From positions 32,001 to 96,000 of the IMG/VR virus record IMGVR_UViG_3300005537_000002: DNA of 64,000 nt. One strand, given 5' to 3'. Source of the stretch: a virus. Under the pieces are notes generated by a model that was given only the letters and a program-made list of their open reading frames with translations, ran no database searches and was not told where the DNA came from. A program made the position numbers and the translations under genes. Numbering within the stretch: position 1 is the stretch's first letter; each line of letters opens with the position of its first letter. Shown here in pieces: positions 7,379-60,022 of the stretch.

Positions 7379-7417
7379 CTACAGAACCTTTCTATGGAAA
7401 ATGTATTTATATAATAT

Positions 7418-16971: not shown

Positions 16972-18971
16972 TGAGTAGTATAGTAGAGGATGCACTGGCG
17001 TTTGCGGAAGCGAACTTTCCTGAGAGACGAGAGCCTCAACTGAAGATGATGGAGTCGGTATGCGAGTTCTTAGAAGCACAGACACCCACGCTTATAGAAG
17101 CCGGAACTGGAACAGGAAAGAGTTTCGCCTATCTAGTTCCTGCTATGTTGTGGTTGCAAGAGCATCCACTCGACAAAATTGTCGTTAGCACAGGGACAAA
17201 GGCCCTACAACGTCAACTAGTTGAGAAGGATATAAAAGCACTACAAAAGCACTTTCCAGGTGTGAAAGTAGCGATTGCAAAAAGCGCGTCCAATTACGCC
17301 TGTGCTGAGTCGATTGCACCTACGATATCAGATCTGGAAAGTACGAATGGGTCAGTTACGGATCTAAGGATCTTAAAGAAGCTAGAAGGGTACGTAACCG
17401 CTCGTTCTGGGTGGGATGGAGACCTAGATAAGATTACCGGCAATCTAGACTGGCAGGTGCGAGAGAGGATTGCGTACTCCCACGATAGCCCCGCATGTGA
17501 TAGTCCGGGTGTTTGCTACCTAAAGCGACGGTTCCAGGAGTTAGAGGAAGCCCAACTGATCATTACAAACCATGCGATGCTAATGACTAGCATGCGACAT
17601 CAACAAGGCTTACCACAATTACTATCAATGGTAATTGTCGACGAGGGGCATAAGCTTCCAGACGTAACAAGAGATGCCTTCACTGAAACTCTCCGACAGT
17701 CAAGTGTAGAACGCTTTGTAAAAAGGGTCTTGCGTGAAGAAGACTCTAACCGCTTGGAACCGTACTACCGAGCTGTGCTAGACGCCAACAATAAGTTGTG
17801 GCAAGAGATCAAGTACGAGCTCAAAAAAGCTGCTGGTAAGAGTCAGTGGGCGCAGATCGTACAAACTACAGAGAATTCTTACGGTTTGAGGCTCTCAACC
17901 GAACTGTCGTTGCTGAAGGAAGCGCTCAAGAACAAACTGTGGAAAATATACATGCAGAGCCTATACGGAGAGAGTGACTATGGACTTACCCCAGAAGAGA
18001 TAAAGGAAGCCAAGCACCGAGGTAAGCTCATCAATACTTGCAACGCACTTTCAGCGCAAGCAGCGCTTATCTTTAAGGCTGAAGAGCCTAACGAAGTCTA
18101 CGCATATGTATGGACAATGGAAGCACAGGACGTTCGTGCAGAAGCTATCCCAATAGACGTAGGAGAACTACTGCAACGTTATCTATACGAAGAGATACCT
18201 ACGTTTCTAACATCAGCGACCCTAGCACATTCAAAGGGTGCTTTAGGATTTGATAGCAAGCAGCACGTCACTGTACTTGACAGTGTCTTTGACTACGAGC
18301 GTCAATCTATCATGTACGTGCCGAAAAGTGCTGTGCTAGCTGGAGACAACAGAGATTCAGACCACTACTTTTCGGCACTAGCAAATACGATGCTGGAACT
18401 AGTGCGGATAACTAAGGGGAGAGGGTTTCTACTGTTCACATCTCGTTACGATATGGAAAAGACGTATGAACTGTTAACTCACCCACTACTAGACGAGGGG
18501 TACTATCCTATCATACAAGGTCAGAACGGTGCGGGTCCTGCTATGCACTCGTATATGACTGCGAACAGACCGCCTGTGCTATTCGGCTTGAAAAGTTTCT
18601 GGGAGGGAGTTGATATCCAAGGAGAGCAACTGTCGCTGGTGGTACTCTCCAAACTTCCGTTCGAGCAGCAGACAGTGATCGACAAAATCCTGCAAAGCGA
18701 TGCGAAGCTTGGTTTTGGTAAGTGGTGGACTGACTTATACTTACCGAGACTGATCACGAATACACAGCAGTCGTTAGGCCGTTTGATTAGGACGACTAAC
18801 GACATTGGCGTCGTAGCGTGCTTGGACGCACGCATTTTTACCAAACAAAGCAACTACGGACAGAAACTAGTAAGTTCGTTGCCATTCACGAACTTTGCTG
18901 TCCAGACTAGCCAAGTTCGTGAATGGTGGAGTACAGCTACAAAAGGAGTATTAACACATGCAGCAAAGTAG
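16971..18971 (+). CDS. dinG: DinG/YoaA-family ATP-dependent DNA helicase
   Basis: EAGTGTGKS, STGTKALQRQL, ITNH, VDEGH, TSATL, FWEGVDIQG, QSLGRLIR motifs. Confidence 0.9.
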   Translation: MSSIVEDALAFAEANFPERREPQLKMMESVCEFLEAQTPTLIEAGTGTGKSFAYLVPAMLWLQEHPLDKIVVSTGTKALQRQLVEKDIKALQKHFPGVKVAIAKSASNYACAESIAPTISDLESTNGSVTDLRILKKLEGYVTARSGWDGDLDKITGNLDWQVRERIAYSHDSPACDSPGVCYLKRRFQELEEAQLIITNHAMLMTSMRHQQGLPQLLSMVIVDEGHKLPDVTRDAFTETLRQSSVERFVKRVLREEDSNRLEPYYRAVLDANNKLWQEIKYELKKAAGKSQWAQIVQTTENSYGLRLSTELSLLKEALKNKLWKIYMQSLYGESDYGLTPEEIKEAKHRGKLINTCNALSAQAALIFKAEEPNEVYAYVWTMEAQDVRAEAIPIDVGELLQRYLYEEIPTFLTSATLAHSKGALGFDSKQHVTVLDSVFDYERQSIMYVPKSAVLAGDNRDSDHYFSALANTMLELVRITKGRGFLLFTSRYDMEKTYELLTHPLLDEGYYPIIQGQNGAGPAMHSYMTANRPPVLFGLKSFWEGVDIQGEQLSLVVLSKLPFEQQTVIDKILQSDAKLGFGKWWTDLYLPRLITNTQQSLGRLIRTTNDIGVVACLDARIFTKQSNYGQKLVSSLPFTNFAVQTSQVREWWSTATKGVLTHAAK

Positions 18972-42167: not shown

Positions 42168-42193
42168 TTTCAACCGACTGGAACAATTATAAT
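42164..42193 (+). promoter_or_regulatory. sigma70-type promoter
   Basis: TTGATT-N18-TATAAT. Confidence 0.7.
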
Positions 42194-51875: not shown

Positions 51876-52451
51876 ATGCTAGAATCGATAGAGACAACAC
51901 ACAACGGTTTCAGATTTCGTTCCCGAAAGGAGGCCCGTTGGGCTGTGTTTTTCGACACAGCCCAAATACCTTTCCTCTATGAACCGGAGGGCTTCAAGCT
52001 ATCATTCGATGCTTCGCAGAAAGACTACAGTTTCACTGACTCTGACGACATAGAGGAAACTCTATGGTACTTACCCGACTTTTGGCTGCCGCAACAAGAC
52101 TGCTATTGGGAAGTAAAGGGGGTAGAACCCGCAAGAATGGAAAACATTCGTGCGAAGAGACTAGCTTACGGGTCAGGTAAAGATGTATTCATCAGCTTCG
52201 GTGACATATGGCTCCCAGAAGAAGGTACAAATACAGACTATTGTAGCGCTCACGTCTTCTTCGGTAGTGGAGGTTGGGACCTAGCATACTGGTGGTGCCA
52301 ATGCGACTATTGTGGCAAACTCCAACTACAGTTTGAGGGTCGAGTAGAGCGCTGCTCTTGTAAACAGACTGAACGTAGGCTTAAAGGAGGAGGTACAAAC
52401 TCCGATCGATTAGTAAGGGCCTATAAAGCAGCTCGTAGTGCTAGATTTTGA
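51876..52451 (+). CDS. PD-(D/E)xK-like nuclease, conserved phage protein
   Basis: FRSRKEARWAVFFD...YEPEGF...YLPDFWLP...EVKG. Confidence 0.75.
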   Translation: MLESIETTHNGFRFRSRKEARWAVFFDTAQIPFLYEPEGFKLSFDASQKDYSFTDSDDIEETLWYLPDFWLPQQDCYWEVKGVEPARMENIRAKRLAYGSGKDVFISFGDIWLPEEGTNTDYCSAHVFFGSGGWDLAYWWCQCDYCGKLQLQFEGRVERCSCKQTERRLKGGGTNSDRLVRAYKAARSARF

Positions 52452-52462
52452 GGAGTTGGTTC

Positions 52463-53476
52463 GTGATTGCTACAAACACGTTAGTGTGGACGGATGCTAG
52501 CGTGAAAACGTTAGCGCAGTTGAGCGTTGGAGACAAGGTCGTTTCCAACGCTCAACTTAAGCAGGTTCGAACGGTCGAACGGACTGAAGTAGATAGGACG
52601 CTTACTATACGTGCAGCAGGTGTGCAGGATGTGTGTATGTCACTCGACCAGCAAGTGTATAGTCGTAAGCCTAAAGATGTCGAATGTACGTGGCGTATAG
52701 CGGCTGAGCTAGATACGGAAGATTTTATTTGGGTTCCTCGTCTGACAGCCACGTCTTGGAACACTGACTATCGAAGTGTTGCACTAACTCGAGAGCTTGC
52801 CAACGTTATTGGCTGGTACTTAGCTGTAGGAAATGCTATACCTAGCACAGGTATGGTGTACTGGAACTTTACTCGAGCAGAGGAGGAATACGCCGCACAA
52901 CTCATGTCAGACCTGCTAGTCGTGCGTGCATTCTTCGTTACGGAATCATCGCACAATAGAATCGGTATGCCTCGTATGCAGCACACGGGCATCAATGGCA
53001 TACTGGTTAAGTTCGGGAGTAAGCGTATGTCTGACTGGCTGAAACTGAACTTCGGCAACGCTTCGGCTAACAAACACATTCCTCCGTGGGTGTATAGAAC
53101 GTCTCCTAAGTTTATTGACCAACTGCTAGCCTCGTATTCGCATGCCGACGGTATTGCGGGTCGTGAGTGGCTAGTTAGCACAGTGTCAATTGACCTAGCT
53201 TACGGCTTGCAACGCTTGCTCAATAAACTTGGGAAGTGCATACGGGTCATCACTAAAGATAACACGTACGGGTACCCCACACTCCATCAATGGGAGTACG
53301 TACTGTACTACGGGTGGCATAGAAGGCAGTCTCAGAAATTCGTCGGCGCTTATAAAGACCACTTCGAGTGTGCTATAGAACGGATTACGCCCTCGAATAA
53401 ACGTATGGAGGTAGGGACTATCCACACTGTAGGCTCGCTACCCTACGCAGTTCCGTACTTAGTGATGCCTACTTGA
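52463..53476 (+). CDS. free-standing degenerate intein (Hint plus LAGLIDADG) with no exteins
   Basis: Block A-like IATNTLVWT..VKTLAQLSVGDKV; LAGLIDADG-like VIGWYLAVGN and LLASYSHADG; STVSIDLAYGLQRLL; no Cys1, TxxH or His-Asn. Confidence 0.75.
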   Translation: MIATNTLVWTDASVKTLAQLSVGDKVVSNAQLKQVRTVERTEVDRTLTIRAAGVQDVCMSLDQQVYSRKPKDVECTWRIAAELDTEDFIWVPRLTATSWNTDYRSVALTRELANVIGWYLAVGNAIPSTGMVYWNFTRAEEEYAAQLMSDLLVVRAFFVTESSHNRIGMPRMQHTGINGILVKFGSKRMSDWLKLNFGNASANKHIPPWVYRTSPKFIDQLLASYSHADGIAGREWLVSTVSIDLAYGLQRLLNKLGKCIRVITKDNTYGYPTLHQWEYVLYYGWHRRQSQKFVGAYKDHFECAIERITPSNKRMEVGTIHTVGSLPYAVPYLVMPT

Positions 53477-53501
53477 TTTTCCAAGCGCCATATATTATAA
53501 T
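53473..53501 (+). promoter_or_regulatory. sigma70-type promoter of the operon ending in the RAMP-like gene and array
   Basis: TTGATT-N17-TATAAT. Confidence 0.65.
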
Positions 53502-53548
53502 TAGTTTATATATAGTAGAAGGTTAGCACGCCTTCTGAAAGGAGCCAC

Positions 53549-54127
53549 GTGAGAACTGAGGACATACTACTGGACCTCCGACTTTCCATTTCGCCAACAA
53601 CGTTCGGGTTGAGTGCTGACGAAAAGCGACTACTAAAGTACGCTTTCACCATCAGTAGGAACTTCTTCCACGAGAGCGACCTACTACCTCTAAAAGAGTG
53701 GCAGAAATACTTCGCGGAAGAACTTTCAGAGTCCCAAGCAGCCGAAGAAGAGGGTAGACGTATTGTAGCAGATCCGAACGCAACTGAGGACCAAAAGATA
53801 CGGGCTTGGCTGAACGTCTATCTAGAGGGTTCAGACTTACTGTACGATGCCGTATGCTGTTACTATAGAGGTAGTAAAGATGAACTACGTTTCGCAAAGG
53901 ACTGTTTTGCGAACTCAGGTTGCACCTATGACGGTTTCTTGGCAGCGGCACTCATTAAGTACGAACTACGGCAGCGAGATAAAAACCCAGACGTAGAACT
54001 CGCGCGTATCGGAGCGCACTTCAGCTACGCTCTTATTAATGGGAAGTGGTCCGCTGACCCCAATGACTTACCGAAGTCAGAGGCGATGTCAGTCATCGGT
54101 AGAAGCGTAGAGTACCGCTTCGACTAG
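53549..54127 (+). CDS. hypothetical protein
   Basis: 192-aa ORF with AAGGAG RBS. Confidence 0.6.
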   Translation: MRTEDILLDLRLSISPTTFGLSADEKRLLKYAFTISRNFFHESDLLPLKEWQKYFAEELSESQAAEEEGRRIVADPNATEDQKIRAWLNVYLEGSDLLYDAVCCYYRGSKDELRFAKDCFANSGCTYDGFLAAALIKYELRQRDKNPDVELARIGAHFSYALINGKWSADPNDLPKSEAMSVIGRSVEYRFD

Positions 54128-54241
54128 GAGGTAGCAATGTCAGTAGCCCTGTGTCAAGACATACTACTATACCTCGCTATCGCTGGTAGCTCGCTTGGAG
54201 GCATCTACTTCGTTGTGCTATCTCTAGCGAGAGGATGAGTA

Positions 54242-54526
54242 ATGGCGGCAGTTACGTCTGCGGCGATACTTTCTGTGGCGCTATTAGTAATACTATCCGG
54301 TAGGTACAGAAAACGTAGAAGCAGGTGGAAAAGCAACCATCTCATCTTCAGTATCGGATGTGGATCGTTCTTTCTAGTGCTATTGTTAGCACTAGTTGCT
54401 AGTGCATTCACTGTACTGTACAGTGCAGAGCATGCGTTCTTTGTAGACGCAGTTGCAACTTGGATCGTTGCATTCTGCTGTGCTTGTATATGCCTCGGAA
54501 GTCTTTTTGCGTACTTCCGAGGCTAG
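54242..54526 (+). CDS. small multi-TM membrane protein
   Basis: Three hydrophobic segments. Confidence 0.5.
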   Translation: MAAVTSAAILSVALLVILSGRYRKRRSRWKSNHLIFSIGCGSFFLVLLLALVASAFTVLYSAEHAFFVDAVATWIVAFCCACICLGSLFAYFRG

Positions 54527-54544
54527 CTACTTATATGGAGTCTT

Positions 54545-55108
54545 ATGTCAGCAGATACACCTATTGTAGATCAGCCTACGTCAGAGTTACCAGTAGTGCG
54601 ACCAACTCATACTTGGAGGGTAGTAGCAGATCCGAAGGGGGATCGGAAGCTACTGTCAGTTGGAACGAGCGTACTTGAAGCTATTCAAAGCTTCGCTCGT
54701 GGAGTACAGGATAACCAGCCGATTGGCATCTATTTAGATGATGTACCCGTCGCCGGAGTACACATCCAAGCAAACCAACCGCCGCTATGCTTACATATCC
54801 TAACGGATATGTCAGCGGCAGATATTGATTGGCACAGCGGACCTACTTCTGTTTGCACGATCGACGAGACGACGGTTATCGACTTGTTGAAAGTCGCATG
54901 TAACGGAGGTAGGATAACGTCCAAACTTCGATTGCCCCTCCCAGTTGTCAGTCGCACCTCAGATGTAAGTTCACTCACACTCGTGAAACTACTACTCTCC
55001 GCACTGTCCAACGAGACACAACCCCATGTGCTAACTGAGCAATGCCAAGCAATCGTCGTACAAGTTGACAAGACGTCGTGTAAATATCTACACGTCAAAC
55101 GTAGTTAA
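54545..55108 (+). CDS. hypothetical protein
   Basis: 187-aa ORF with GGAG RBS. Confidence 0.55.
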   Translation: MSADTPIVDQPTSELPVVRPTHTWRVVADPKGDRKLLSVGTSVLEAIQSFARGVQDNQPIGIYLDDVPVAGVHIQANQPPLCLHILTDMSAADIDWHSGPTSVCTIDETTVIDLLKVACNGGRITSKLRLPLPVVSRTSDVSSLTLVKLLLSALSNETQPHVLTEQCQAIVVQVDKTSCKYLHVKRS

Positions 55109-55129
55109 GTAGAAGGGAATACCACGAAT

Positions 55130-55693
55130 ATGGCTGCAGTTATCATCGTCTCCATTACGGGGATGACCCCACTTATTATGAACCGCTTCCACGAGGAAGC
55201 ACAGGCAGAAGCTACCTCCCGCGTACACTCACGTAAGGAAACGCTCTCTCCGGAAGACGACGCCAAAGGTAGACTCTACCAAAACGAAGAACTCGGAGTC
55301 TACATGCCGGCCGAGTGGGTCCGTCAGTCTGTTATTGAAGCAGCTAAGAGACACAAAATTGGTAGACGGGCCGCTACTACAGACATTGCTGCCGCTGTGT
55401 ACATCGAACCGTTCGCTATGAAGCTCGAAGGTGAGTGGCACGTAGACACTCGTCCAGTCGTTATACCTGCCACTCAAGGACGTATTCTCAGACACAGGCC
55501 GATGTTCGAAACCTGGTCCGTGAAGGGTTTTCGATTGCAAGTCGAAACTGACCTCGTCGACGAAAAGCTAGTACGAGCTGTGCTAGACGACAGCGGTAGA
55601 TTCGTAGGGGTAGGAGACTTCAGACCCACTAAGAAAGGCCCCTACGGCAGATTCCGTGTAGACAGTTGGGAACGTTTAAGCAACCACTCATAA
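55130..55693 (+). CDS. stand-alone RAMP/Cas7-like RRM-fold protein (Vipr-like candidate effector)
   Basis: First strand VSITGMTPL, central YMPAEWVRQSV (cf. RAMP IPGSSLKG) and C-terminal glycine-rich loop GVGDFRPTKKGPYGRF; no cas genes nearby. Confidence 0.75.
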   Translation: MAAVIIVSITGMTPLIMNRFHEEAQAEATSRVHSRKETLSPEDDAKGRLYQNEELGVYMPAEWVRQSVIEAAKRHKIGRRAATTDIAAAVYIEPFAMKLEGEWHVDTRPVVIPATQGRILRHRPMFETWSVKGFRLQVETDLVDEKLVRAVLDDSGRFVGVGDFRPTKKGPYGRFRVDSWERLSNHS

Positions 55694-55694
55694 A

Positions 55695-56886
55695 GGTTTG
55701 GTTTGTCAAGTTAGGCTATGGTGGGTCACGGCAAGGTAAGGACGCTTCGGCTCGGATTGGTGAGCTATAGTAAGTCACGGTAGGGTGTTGTAGGGTAAGG
55801 ATGGCGTGGTTTGGACTAGTGCGACTTGGAGCCGTGGGGTAAGTCACGTTCCGGTATCGCGCGGTGTGGATGCCCAGGTACGGATCGGTTTGCTAGTGCG
55901 AGGTTGACACTGGTAGAGTTTGGTTTGTCTAGCTGGCGTCAGGTGAGGAAGCTATGGTGAGGTCGAGCATGGCAGAGTTTGCTCGGGTACTGCTAGGCGG
56001 GTTAAGGTACGGTCCGGAAGCTTTGGTCAGGTTAGGTATGCTCGAGTTTGTTACGGTGTGTTAAGGTTCTGTTTGGCTTGCTACGTTATGTATAGGTTGG
56101 CTATGCTGAGATATGGTAAGGACGCTTTGGTTTGGACTGGTCGGGACAGTTAAGGGGTGGTCCGGTATAGCTTGCTACGGATTGGTTTCGTTCGGCTCGG
56201 TTAGGAAGCTTCGGTACGGTGAGTTGAGGCTAGGATTGCAATGGTCGGGTATGTTTTTATAGGGTTCGGTTAGATCAGTAGTGGTAAGGCGCCGTAGGGA
56301 CAGGTCTGAGAGGCGAGGTTGCATGCGGCTAGGAGTGGTGTCGTATGGTACGGATGCTAAGGAGAGGTTAGGACTGCAATGGTCTGTCGCGGTAATGACA
56401 GGCGTGTCGATGTGTGGTATGTTCAGGTGAGGATGCTTCGGTATGGATCGGCGCTGTTTGGAAAGGTTTGCTAGGGTAAGTCGAGGCTCACAGAGGTATG
56501 GTAGGTCGTGGTACAGAACGGTTCGGAAGCCTAGGTATGGTACGTAATGGCATGCTTTGGTAGTCTTTTGTCTGGCACGCTAAGTCGAGGTGGAGTTCGG
56601 TAAGCTGCGGAGAGGAAGCTAAGGTCTGGAACGTCGAGGTATGGTATGGGAAGCCATTGTACGGTGAGTCGGTGTGAGCGAAGGTTTGTTAGGCTGGGGT
56701 ATGGAAGTCCAGGAAAGGTGAGGTGCAGTTTGGCAGTGCGTGGTGAGGTAGGGCTGTGTCCCGGTAACGTGAGGTAAGGTACTGCAACGCGCGGTGAGGT
56801 TCGGATGCTAAGAACAGGCGTGGTACGGTATAGTGGGGAAATGCTAGGTAAGGCATGTCAAGTTGCGCTTGCGTAAGGTACGGTTT
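55695..56886 (+). ncRNA. GGY-NN pentamer guide-like array (about 227 pentamers, 15 units)
   Basis: Strict 5-nt phasing with semi-conserved positions 1-3 and variable positions 4-5; 4-nt breaks at 55740, 55799, 55868, 55947, 56016, 56120, 56204, 56308, 56352, 56431, 56525, 56614, 56703, 56803; no credible ORF. Confidence 0.8.
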
Positions 56887-56891
56887 TACAG

Positions 56892-56936
56892 CGCGTGATA
56901 GTATGCGGAACCGTTGTCGAAGCATACTATCACGCG
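56892..56936 (+). terminator. 15-bp perfect hairpin closing the array
   Basis: CGCGTGATAGTATGC-N15-GCATACTATCACGCG. Confidence 0.65.
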
Positions 56937-57203
56937 TTCGTAGTGGTTTCGGTACGCTCTATCATAGTTTGGGGTTCCGATGAGATGTAGAGCCATCTCA
57001 ATTGTAGAGTCTGACGTGTATAGCACAGTGCCATCATTAGAGGCCTTTGCTAGGTAATAGCGTACTAGGCTACCCCTTCGGACTAGCACAGTTGCATTGT
57101 AGGTCGGTTCGTTTGTCCGAGCTCTCAACAGAGAAAACGGACGTTCATTGGCTTTCCCCTCTGACATGGATACCTGTTCTCCTTCGTAGTAAACACAGCC
57201 CTC

Positions 57204-57233
57204 TTGAATTTAGTTTATGTAATTTATTATAAT
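57204..57233 (+). promoter_or_regulatory. sigma70-type promoter
   Basis: TTGAAT-N18-TATAAT. Confidence 0.7.
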
Positions 57234-57294
57234 ATAAATAGAAGAGTAAAAACAAGGATCGCTGTATCTTTGGTACGAGCAACGGAGGACGCAA

Positions 57295-57777
57295 TTGAGC
57301 TATGACAACAATGTAGCGGAATACCCTCGCCCTAAGAGCAGGAGGGCGCAACGGGTTATGGAGGAGCGTATCGCAGCATTAGACTGCGATATCGTAAGTC
57401 GGACAGAGGATACGATAAGCGTCTCCTATCCCGACGACCTCACTAAATTTCAACTGGATCAAGTACTAATGCACGCGTATGAGTACCAACTGTTCACGTT
57501 GTGGGATGCCTTAGATGTAGGCATCGGAGCATCAACGTGTGGAGCGACGTCGAAAGGTTTGACCCTCATAGGTGTCACTCGAGTAAGGGGGAGAGCGTAC
57601 TGTTTACGTATCTCCTACAGCGTCTTAAGGTCAACTGAACAGGGAGTAGTCTGCATTTGGAAAGCAAATGAGAGCAACCAACTGGAACTAGCTATGAGAG
57701 CGATGTTCGGCCTAGAACTTTCTGATGCAGTCTGGTTTCCCTACTGGGAAGAGAGTTCCAACGGAGGAGGACAATGA
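57295..57777 (+). CDS. hypothetical protein
   Basis: TTG start after GGAGG. Confidence 0.55.
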   Translation: MSYDNNVAEYPRPKSRRAQRVMEERIAALDCDIVSRTEDTISVSYPDDLTKFQLDQVLMHAYEYQLFTLWDALDVGIGASTCGATSKGLTLIGVTRVRGRAYCLRISYSVLRSTEQGVVCIWKANESNQLELAMRAMFGLELSDAVWFPYWEESSNGGGQ

Positions 57778-58040
57778 GAAAAGGTCAGGCTAAAATGCGC
57801 GAGCTGCAGGAGCACGTACATGCAAGTACAGACAACTTATGTCACTTTTGTAATACAAGGCCTGCTATAGGTGACTATACATACAAGCCGGGTAAAACGT
57901 CTATTATCGGTCGTCTGTGTACAGACTGCGTGCTAGAGTTGAATGGCAAACCGACAACTGCGACTGCTAAAGAGGGGCCTTGTATGATATTGTTTGTTAA
58001 CAAACTATTCCAGGAGGGTAGCAGTAATGTCACAGACTGA
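57774..58040 (+). CDS. small zinc-finger protein
   Basis: CHFC...CTDC; ATGA coupling. Confidence 0.55.
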   Translation: MRKGQAKMRELQEHVHASTDNLCHFCNTRPAIGDYTYKPGKTSIIGRLCTDCVLELNGKPTTATAKEGPCMILFVNKLFQEGSSNVTD

Positions 58041-58443
58041 TGACAAGTTTAGCGCGTCGCTTACAGTAGACTTTAGTCAGTCTCCTAACGCAACGCTGGA
58101 GGTGTTTACACAGGGACCTTTGTGGACTCGACTGAACAACTACGATCCGGAGGTGTACTTCGAATGGTACGGTCGCGAGGTCCGAATGGAGCCCACGAGA
58201 GAGTACCCGGACTGTGTCAGGTTCGACTTCGAACTCATATCACTAGGAGGCTCGAGAGCTGAAGTGATGTGTCTTCGTATTATCGAACCCAAACGAAGTA
58301 TGGGAAATGAGTCGACGAAGTTCCATCAACAGTTCGCAAAGGTTATGATAGCTCTCGATGGCGAAGTTGTCTATGTACAACTAACCGGATCGGAGTACGA
58401 CATAGATGTGGAGGTTATCGGTGCAACGCGGGGAGAGTATTGA
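58027..58443 (+). CDS. hypothetical protein
   Basis: ATG after GGAGGG. Confidence 0.55.
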   Translation: MSQTDDKFSASLTVDFSQSPNATLEVFTQGPLWTRLNNYDPEVYFEWYGREVRMEPTREYPDCVRFDFELISLGGSRAEVMCLRIIEPKRSMGNESTKFHQQFAKVMIALDGEVVYVQLTGSEYDIDVEVIGATRGEY

Positions 58444-58633
58444 ACTCACAACAGATGAGTTCGCGGAGATTTTACAGTTGCTGTTCACGAGTACAGACCC
58501 GAATATACAACGACTGCTCTCCGTACACCAAGTCGGTATATCCAGCGAGAGCTGTTCAGGTAACTCGACTCTATGGGTACATACCGGTCTAGGTTCGTTT
58601 ACACTAACTATTACGAAGGACGGGCGACAATAG
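58406..58633 (+). CDS. hypothetical protein
   Basis: 75-aa ORF within the operon. Confidence 0.4.
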   Translation: MWRLSVQRGESIELTTDEFAEILQLLFTSTDPNIQRLLSVHQVGISSESCSGNSTLWVHTGLGSFTLTITKDGRQ

Positions 58634-58860
58634 TGTCTATCCGTATTGCGCTAGAGTACTTAGCGGTCATACTGACGACTTCAGGATTATATAGCACAGT
58701 TGTATGCCTCATCTGCCTATACTTCGGGAGCGGATGCCTTTCGAGTTGGATACCTTCCCCCAAGACTCGGGAGGATGCGTTTTGGACAATGTTGTTAGGA
58801 GCAGCATCCGTCGCTGTTGGAGTCTCGTTGCTACGCTTAGTCGCTATAGGCAACTTGTAA
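58573..58860 (+). CDS. small membrane protein
   Basis: Two hydrophobic helices; start uncertain. Confidence 0.4.
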   Translation: MGTYRSRFVYTNYYEGRATIVSIRIALEYLAVILTTSGLYSTVVCLICLYFGSGCLSSWIPSPKTREDAFWTMLLGAASVAVGVSLLRLVAIGNL

Positions 58861-58935
58861 ACAATCGGTCGTTTATATTATAATTAAATTATAAAAACAA
58901 CGTCGTAACGACCGAAGTGAACAGGAGAAGCTTTT

Positions 58936-59301
58936 TTGACACAACTAACTGACAAAGACAAACAACTAGAAAGGGTGGCGATATGCATCTCATATACGTT
59001 ATCCGAGCTACTCAAACCAATGGACGTACATATTGCCGACGGAAGCGTGTATACGGATGTAGGACAGTCACTGTCACTCAATAATGACGAGTGGTCAGTG
59101 ACTGTAGAAGGTTGGCGGATGCAGGGGGATCCGAAGTCAGATCTATACCCGTGTGAGACTCAGACAGTGTACCGAGGGAATAGTCCCCTCGATGCGGTAC
59201 GTAGTATGATAGCTTGGATACTCAACGCCAGTGATTTCAACGAGCTATCGGATACGCAGCAGCAAGTCATCGTTCGAGCATTAGCACACTGGTTTGCGTA
59301 G
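58936..59301 (+). CDS. hypothetical protein
   Basis: 121-aa ORF, TTG after GGAG. Confidence 0.5.
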   Translation: MTQLTDKDKQLERVAICISYTLSELLKPMDVHIADGSVYTDVGQSLSLNNDEWSVTVEGWRMQGDPKSDLYPCETQTVYRGNSPLDAVRSMIAWILNASDFNELSDTQQQVIVRALAHWFA

Positions 59302-59419
59302 CAGGGACACCAACCCAAAGTTGTCGAGGGTGGTCGAAAGGCCACCCTTTATTTTTTGTCTTATAATACGTTATAATATTAATAAAGGCGTCGTATACTA
59401 CACAGAAGGAGGGCAACTA

Positions 59420-60022
59420 TTGAAAAAACACCCGGCAGTTGTATTCGTACTAGAGTGGTTCCTGACTTGTGCGGGCTTGAGCTTGAGTCTACTACTCTAC
59501 AACTGGTTAGACTGGGTCATTAACCACATTGTAGACCGCGACATCAGAGGTAAGTACCCGCTAGAGCACTGGTTGCTAGTCGGTATGATTATCGCTGGAG
59601 GCTTCATCATCACGTACCTGATCTTCAAAGTAAAGTCATTCCGGATGCAAAAGAGACCAACACCCGGTGTGCCGAAGTTTGGTTACGGTGGACCTAACCT
59701 ACCAACCGTTAAGGACAGTAGAGTACCCAACCAGCAGACGATCCCACGCCCGAGAGATGACCGCCCTAGTCAGCAGCAACCATCTAAAAAGGATCGTCAG
59801 CAGGGAGCAGCATATGCTAGCAACCCAATGAACTCTCCCGTCATTAACGGACCTCGGGGGGACCAGAAAATGTTACCCCCGGGTAACAAGCAGCAAGCAC
59901 GTCGGCTAGACGAACTGTTCGACGACGAATACGAAGACCCACGTACGTTACAAGCACAGCGGGCTCGTGGATACCAACAACAGCAACAGCAACCCCGTTG
60001 GGTAGACGGAGATGACCAATGA
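59420..60022 (+). CDS. two-TM membrane protein with a Pro/Gln-rich disordered tail
   Basis: TTG after AAGGAGGG; two TMs then PTPGVP..QQQP..QQQQQQP. Confidence 0.6.
   Translation: MKKHPAVVFVLEWFLTCAGLSLSLLLYNWLDWVINHIVDRDIRGKYPLEHWLLVGMIIAGGFIITYLIFKVKSFRMQKRPTPGVPKFGYGGPNLPTVKDSRVPNQQTIPRPRDDRPSQQQPSKKDRQQGAAYASNPMNSPVINGPRGDQKMLPPGNKQQARRLDELFDDEYEDPRTLQAQRARGYQQQQQQPRWVDGDDQ

Follow-up and report, generated by a model that had tools for sequence, protein, structure and literature searches.

The window analysed here, a stretch of 64,000 nucleotides corresponding to bases 32001-96000 of the 177,637-bp virus record IMGVR_UViG_3300005537_000002, very probably carries a VIPR (Viral Interference Programmable Repeat) system, made up of a stand-alone vipr gene and a staggered array of about 15 vrRNAs. 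VIPR systems combine a minimal RAMP protein, Vipr, with vrRNAs of 9-16 GGY/NN repeats; most occur in viruses and proviruses, frequently with a single accessory vap gene and at times stand-alone, and they are divided into seven types with several array architectures (10.64898/2026.04.26.720920). In the cryo-electron microscopy structure of the SUSP1 system, one protomer occupies each repeat, the GGY is sequestered and the NN pairs with DNA, each third base of the target being left out (10.64898/2026.04.26.720927). An earlier note on this DNA had pointed to such systems, and they exist as it described them (bioRxiv 10.64898/2026.04.26.720920 and 10.64898/2026.04.26.720927); the mechanism that it proposed, in which each protomer binds one pentamer, holds the constant trinucleotide and presents NN for pairing, matches the SUSP1 structure and would apply here by analogy.

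The assignment is supported by the homology of the encoded protein to SUSP1 Vipr, by its Cas7/Csm3-like model and by the invariance of D163 and R123; by a 5-nucleotide (nt) periodicity unique in the genome, with free NN positions, and the co-occurrence of gene and tract at related loci; by −1 junctions that recur in the homologous loci L003, L005, L025 and L026, as in the staggered architecture drawn in fig. S18 of the VIPR preprint; and by the lack of a self-target under the 1-nt skip rule and of Cas1, a CRISPR array, a hammerhead ribozyme or any Rfam family. The layout has already been published, and the locus is a good new example of it and not a new system. Its principal features are the following.

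55130-55693, + strand: vipr gene, encoding a 187-amino-acid single-RRM RAMP protein (stop codon TAA at 55691-55693)
55695-56886, + strand: staggered vrRNA array, 1.19 kb, 15 units (U1-U15), about 226 pentamers
56892-56936, + strand: closing hairpin, in which 56892-56906 pairs with 56922-56936 (perfect 15-bp stem, 15-nt loop)

The Vipr protein

The 187-residue open reading frame (ORF) and the motifs quoted from it in the earlier note are present at 55130-55693 on the + strand. Compared with all PDB chains by phmmer, the protein has one match, chain 36pp_D, annotated as "SUSP1 Vipr protein" (E 4.5e-9, residues 38-178), and it is 26-29% identical to the type II Vipr proteins of SUSP1 and P. fulva (PDB 36pp and 36PK). 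It also matches phrog_4652, a PHROGs family of unknown function (E 9e-25), with nothing significant in Pfam or PADLOC, and tblastn recovers homologs at 26-37% identity in Felixounavirus, Pseudomonas and mycobacteriophage sequences. The AlphaFold2 model, built on 42 homologs, has a pLDDT of 88.2 and a pTM of 0.81 and contains no second RRM; its best Foldseek matches are to type VII Cas7 and type III Csm3 (E ~1e-6, probability 1.00), the PDB copy searched being older than the Vipr structures. The protein is thus modelled as a Cas7/Csm3-like single-RRM fold, in line with the RAMP/Cas7-like nature that the earlier note had read from the motifs.

Alignment to a Felixounavirus Vipr in which D177, W178 and R179 carry the published numbers was used to map residues. 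The elements and residue correspondences are listed below, the alanine substitutions being those reported for SUSP1 (10.64898/2026.04.26.720927).

G160-V-G-D163-F164-R165-P166: G-loop
Residues ~103-126: thumb hairpin, including R123
SUSP1 D177, window D163: alanine substitution abolished silencing in SUSP1
SUSP1 W178, window F164: aromatic residue retained
SUSP1 R179, window R165
SUSP1 R138, window R123: alanine substitution abolished silencing in SUSP1
SUSP1 E71, window E62

In the alignment of 42 homologs D163, R165 and R123 never vary and F164 and E62 hardly do; by sequence alignment, most of the residues with which SUSP1 Vipr reads GGY are retained. A four-residue insertion (KKGP) after the G-loop is conserved in the clade to which this protein belongs.

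The staggered pentamer array

As the earlier note had described, a G-rich tract starts one base after the vipr stop codon, which ends at 55693, the first pentamer (GGTTT) lying at 55695; between 55695 and 56886 the + strand is 39% G. The autocorrelation that the note had proposed for this interval bears out its period, with base autocorrelation of 0.40-0.42 at lags 5, 10, 15 and 20 against 0.18-0.25 at lags 2-3 and 7-8, and the 5-nt periodicity has a z of 17.6 relative to 500 first-order Markov resamples. No other 5-nt periodic tract was found in the 177,637-bp genome, either by a sliding scan or by a strict scan for GGY runs. The longest ORF within the tract is 49 amino acids, and a period of five is incompatible with coding sequence. 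Tandem Repeats Finder returned nothing in the tract because the units are too variable, and autocorrelation and a hidden Markov model parse were therefore used. Once the register is corrected, the five positions of the pentamer have the following composition and information content.

Position 1: G 85%, 1.16 bit
Position 2: G 69%, A only 3%, 0.68 bit
Position 3: Y 81%, G only 2%, 0.58 bit
Position 4: nearly free, 0.12 bit
Position 5: nearly free, 0.04 bit

Positions 4 and 5 therefore vary almost freely, much as first noticed, whereas the accompanying statement that positions 1-3 are near-constant needs correction: canonical GGY makes up only 42-46% of pentamers. Much of the remainder consists of GCT (11%), GTC, GTT and NGT. 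The variants in this array mostly drop the second G (GCT, GTC, GTT), while other arrays usually lose the first (TGC, AGC, AGT), and a GCTA(N) motif is especially common within its units.

The earlier description of the tract as a string that parses cleanly into pentamers does not hold along its length. Read in one register its per-phase composition is flat, because the phase of GG repeatedly moves by −1, about every 45-105 nt along a phase track. A Viterbi parse together with a manual unit table resolves 15 staggered units of 9-21 pentamers each, with register slips of −1 at 14 junctions and of +1 once, near 56757. Neighbouring units share one G, the last base of one being the first base of the next, and unit lengths are 5k nt when this shared G is counted. 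Aligning the 14 junctions gives the consensus GGT-NN-GGA-W-[G]-CY-NN-GGT, in which GGAWG is the last pentamer of one unit and GCYNN the first of the next; 11 junctions are recovered by a regular expression.

Unit starts, U1-U8: 55695, 55744, 55803, 55872, 55951, 56020, 56124, 56208
Unit starts, U9-U15: 56312, 56356, 56435, 56529, 56618, 56707, 56807
55740-55753, + strand: example junction
56308-56316: divergent junction (GAGAG/GGCGA)
56799-56807: divergent junction
56752-56760, + strand: +1 register slip within U14 (GGTAG GGC TGT GTCCC)

The +1 slip may split U14 into two 10-pentamer guides that have no canonical junction between them. Beyond the 9-nt junction, no conserved inter-unit sequence was found in this array, in contrast to the Felixounavirus locus L006, which has one. 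The 15-bp hairpin said to close the tract is an exact inverted repeat (56892-56906 and 56922-56936) with a predicted folding energy of −38.9 kcal/mol (z −4.2); no T-run follows it and no canonical intrinsic terminator was called.

Homologous loci and related systems

Metagenome collections contain 152 proteins that are 54-71% identical to the Vipr of the window, among them P0040 (67% identical), which is encoded on a contig of a Ktedonobacteraceae metagenome-assembled genome with integrase and terminase genes (locus L003). This homolog is the sole pointer obtained to Chloroflexota as possible hosts of the phage. The earlier note had expected homologous genes to be followed by tracts of the same period, and a 5-nt periodic tract lies within 100 nt of the gene in 92 of 100 non-redundant homolog loci drawn from viral and prokaryotic collections, nearly all of the tracts being G-skewed on the vipr strand. 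In the clade at least 60% identical, the automatic Viterbi parse places 8 −1 breaks in L003 (for which a junction listing gives 6 clean junctions), 17 in L005 and 6 each in L025 and L026. Arrays beside homologs of at most 48% identity mostly show other types of slip, a few having one or two −1 slips, and most of the parsed loci with repeated −1 breaks belong to the clade of at least 60% identity. The junction pentamer, GGNWG, is phage-specific, being GGCTG in L005, GGT[AT]G in L003 and GGA[ACT]G in the phage of the window.

The 1.75-kb tract of L005 lies 296 nt downstream of its vipr gene. This array (L005:6865-8530, on a 139-kb contig) is a larger and cleaner staggered array, with 83% GGY, the 17 −1 breaks of the automatic parse and the junction pentamer GGCTG, and it would be a better reference for the staggered architecture.

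Among known systems the closest in layout is the "staggered vrRNA array" drawn in fig. S18 of the VIPR preprint, where consecutive vrRNAs overlap by one nucleotide, each beginning on the last base of the one before (10.64898/2026.04.26.720920). As far as the legend of that figure describes it, both have a Vipr homolog beside a long GGY/NN array with one-nucleotide overlaps in a viral genome, and neither has a tail or a ribozyme; the array of the window differs in its length (15 units, 1.19 kb) and in an unusually low share of canonical GGY. According to the same preprint, small-RNA sequencing confirmed only the ribozyme-interspersed and single-vrRNA architectures. Departures from the canonical trinucleotide have also been met elsewhere, a set of 99 VIPR-like 5-nt clusters including non-canonical trinucleotides having been recovered (10.64898/2026.10.21.760802).

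With type II VIPR of SUSP1 the locus shares, besides the homologous protein, the G-loop GVGD(W/F)RP, the thumb arginine and a pentamer code with free NN. It differs from the type II arrangement of Vipr, Vap1 and vrRNAs with a 3' pseudoknot tail in having neither the invariant tail of about 40 nt and its pseudoknot nor a vap1 homolog, in carrying 15 contiguous guides where SUSP1 has about 4 separate ones, and in the KKGP insertion that its clade carries at the G-loop. The locus is therefore not of type II (no tail or pseudoknot), nor is it of the ribozyme kind: no hammerhead ribozyme was found, and nothing in 55000-57300 matched Rfam at E values up to 1. The backbone proteins of class 1 CRISPR systems (Cas7, Csm3 and type VII Cas7) likewise have an RRM core, a glycine-rich loop, a thumb hairpin and one protomer for each fixed RNA step, but the step is 5 nt in VIPR and 6 in CRISPR, the VIPR guide is read discontinuously, and VIPR has no repeat-spacer array, Cas6/Cas5 cap or adaptation genes.

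By homology to the SUSP1 system and from the layout of the locus, a working scheme can be proposed. The vipr gene and the array would be co-transcribed from the + strand as the last part of a long rightward unit, with the 15-bp hairpin ending or protecting the transcript, and the transcript would give 15 guides of 45-105 nt, bounded by the one-base register breaks at which GGAWG overlaps GCYNN. Vipr protomers would polymerise along each guide, one per pentamer, with G-G-Y held by the G-loop (D163, F164, R165), the thumb (R123) and helix 1 (E62), while the free NN, by analogy, would read double-stranded DNA and leave out one base for each dinucleotide, with footprints of 27-63 bp. The outcome would be silencing of transcription in a competing phage, prophage or satellite; the SUSP1 VIPR protects its phage from a satellite (10.64898/2026.10.15.759431). 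Repression is expected and not cleavage, because no nuclease or helicase partner is linked to the locus.

A more speculative reading, less likely than not, is that the register break itself acts as punctuation. The GG spacing changes from 5 to 4 nt at the junction pentamer that each phage has for itself (GGAWG in the window, GGCTG or GGTWG in related phages), and this could stop an in-phase Vipr filament, splitting one transcript into 15 separately loaded guides although neither a ribozyme, a structured tail nor a nuclease like Cas6 takes part; the internal G[CT]Y pentamers would then be a tolerated relaxed code and not decay.

The VIPR class of RNA-guided DNA-binding systems is very recent, its first descriptions being preprints of 2026, in which the staggered arrays are depicted and not characterised. 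The locus places VIPR in a large soil phage and is a compact test object, with one gene and 1.2 kb holding 15 guides and neither an accessory gene nor a tail or ribozyme, which suits it for asking how staggered arrays are cut or phased into guides, whether Vipr can work without a Vap and how far GGY may degenerate.

Alternative explanations and genomic setting

Several observations weigh against the assignment to VIPR. The share of canonical GGY among pentamers, 42-46%, compares with 62-83% in relatives, and some units may bind Vipr poorly; SUSP1 H17 falls in an alignment gap, and K33 pairs with H33 in a region of low confidence. No recognisable vap gene and no vap1 homolog is present at the locus, and the SUSP1 system depends on Vap1 (10.64898/2026.10.15.759431). 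Five exact scans of viral contigs with sub-guides, one metagenome scan and 79 genomes yielded no target.

The target searches applied the published rule of NN, one skipped base, NN. Within the phage genome, none of 16 guide strings had self-targets above shuffled controls, and skip rules of 0-3 gave only a trivial skip-3 self match; self-targeting is reported to be absent in other VIPRs too (10.64898/2026.04.26.720920). Exact windows of 9 or 10 dinucleotides from U3, U10, U5, U12 and U8 (viral contigs) and U7 (metagenomes) gave 0-6 matches each, which is about chance, and the flanking bases of the matches agreed at chance levels (1/10, 4-5/14, 2-5/18 and 4/14), none of the matches extending. 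Since exact sub-windows mostly miss targets at 80-90% NN identity, the negative outcome is a weak one. With full-length U7 and up to 3 mismatches, nothing was found in 79 genomes from the phylum of G001, a genome that contains a Vipr fragment of 63% identity; this small phylum is probably not that of the host. No guide shared between the array and about 110 other loci rose above shuffled controls.

Several in-frame matches fell on conserved protein motifs and were considered as targets; they do not extend and were rejected as chance. In three viral contigs a conserved motif near the C-terminus of the tape-measure protein, GPELAFAGNTPM, is matched in codon register by the central nine dinucleotides of U3 (L106:4934-4974, and also L105 and L107). 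As a target of U3 this motif was rejected too, because the other five dinucleotides match 1 of 10 bases, so that the match is put down to chance.

The principal alternative, which we consider unlikely, is a decaying or largely inactive VIPR array, in which vipr is intact but many units have drifted and few of the 15 still work. A GGY fraction (0.42-0.46) that is the lowest of all arrays compared would suit such drift, as would the two divergent junctions, the +1 slip inside U14 and the lack of a target for any unit searched. Decay is nevertheless hard to reconcile with a register that holds through 1.19 kb and 14 exact −1 junctions, and the departures from GGY are non-random, with 3% A at position 2, 2% G at position 3 and GCT, GTC and GTT as the main variants, which looks like a constrained, relaxed motif. 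Degeneracy is moreover frequent inside working vrRNAs (10.64898/2026.04.26.720920), and a SUSP1-like Felixounavirus array is itself only about 70% GGY.

A far smaller probability attaches to the proposal that the tract acts as DNA, for instance as a site of replication or packaging, an array bound by proteins or a region prone to G-quadruplexes, and merely adjoins a RAMP gene. Pairs of G spaced 5 nt apart on the same strand could fold into two-tetrad quadruplexes. A DNA element, however, would not be expected to accompany 92 of 100 homologs on very different contigs, nearly always G-skewed on the vipr strand, nor would a structural DNA repeat be expected to leave two positions of each pentamer free, and the tracts of SUSP1 and P. 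fulva are transcribed and co-purify with Vipr (10.64898/2026.04.26.720920).

Least probable of the alternatives is that the locus is what remains of class 1 CRISPR-Cas, its Cas7 orphaned and its array degenerate: the best structural matches are indeed type VII Cas7 and type III Csm3, though in a PDB copy that predates the Vipr structures, while SUSP1 Vipr is the one PDB entry matched by sequence, the 187-residue protein is a minimal RAMP with a single RRM, the period is 5 nt and not ~60-70 nt, and no Cas1, repeat-spacer array or CRISPR repeat family occurs anywhere in the genome. The earlier note had likewise reported no cas1 and no CRISPR array; Cas1 was sought by profile search and CRISPR-like repeat arrays and Rfam families, CRISPR repeats included, throughout the genome, whereas cas2, cas3 and cas6 were not searched.

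Taken as a VIPR system, the locus looks stand-alone. None of the twelve ORFs neighbouring vipr has a homolog in any of the ~100 homolog loci. In the sub-clade of L003, L025 and L026, a gene for a DUF559/MTES_1575 (Vsr-like) endonuclease lies ahead of the upstream vrRNA array (L003:4808-5461, L025:3244-3666, L026:2875-3537) and is a candidate nuclease-type vap of these loci; no homolog of this nuclease was found in the phage of the window. L005 encodes a DinG-like helicase (DEAD and Helicase_C_2 domains, L005:3978-5966) 35 nt upstream of vipr, and this link may be coincidental, because its sole homolog in the phage of the window (17106-18947, 31% identical) is 38 kb from vipr.

The phage itself is a 177-kb soil phage, the record having direct terminal repeats, a rating of complete and 48% G+C, and it has no DNA similarity to known phages. 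The roughly 12 ORFs that flank the VIPR locus (51876-60022) have no significant match in Pfam, PHROGs or PADLOC. The following features surround it.

51876-52451: 191-amino-acid ORF, no significant Pfam, PHROG or PADLOC match
52448-53476: 342-amino-acid ORF, no significant Pfam, PHROG or PADLOC match
54545-55108, + strand: 187-amino-acid ORF, upstream of vipr and separated from it by 21 nt (its last base and the vipr ATG lie 22 nt apart)
57225-57238, + strand: copy of the AT-rich promoter-like motif TATTATAATATAAA, 3' of the array and hairpin, overlapping a sigma-70-like match at 57204-57233

The ORF at 54545-55108 is an ORFan, which gives no ground for calling it a vap: it found itself as the sole homolog among 5.8 billion proteins, has no Pfam, PHROG or PADLOC match and is absent from every homolog locus. 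The 14-mer TATTATAATATAAA, allowing at most 2 mismatches, occurs in 16 copies in the window against 0.44 expected, including those at 7417, 13794, 26296, 42185, 57225, 60860 and 62393, among others, mostly ahead of gene clusters, and it is probably the phage's own promoter consensus. The copy at 57225 would mark the start of the next transcription unit, beyond the array and hairpin, and the nearest earlier copy on the + strand is the one at 42185; from this layout, vipr and its array appear to close a long rightward transcription unit.

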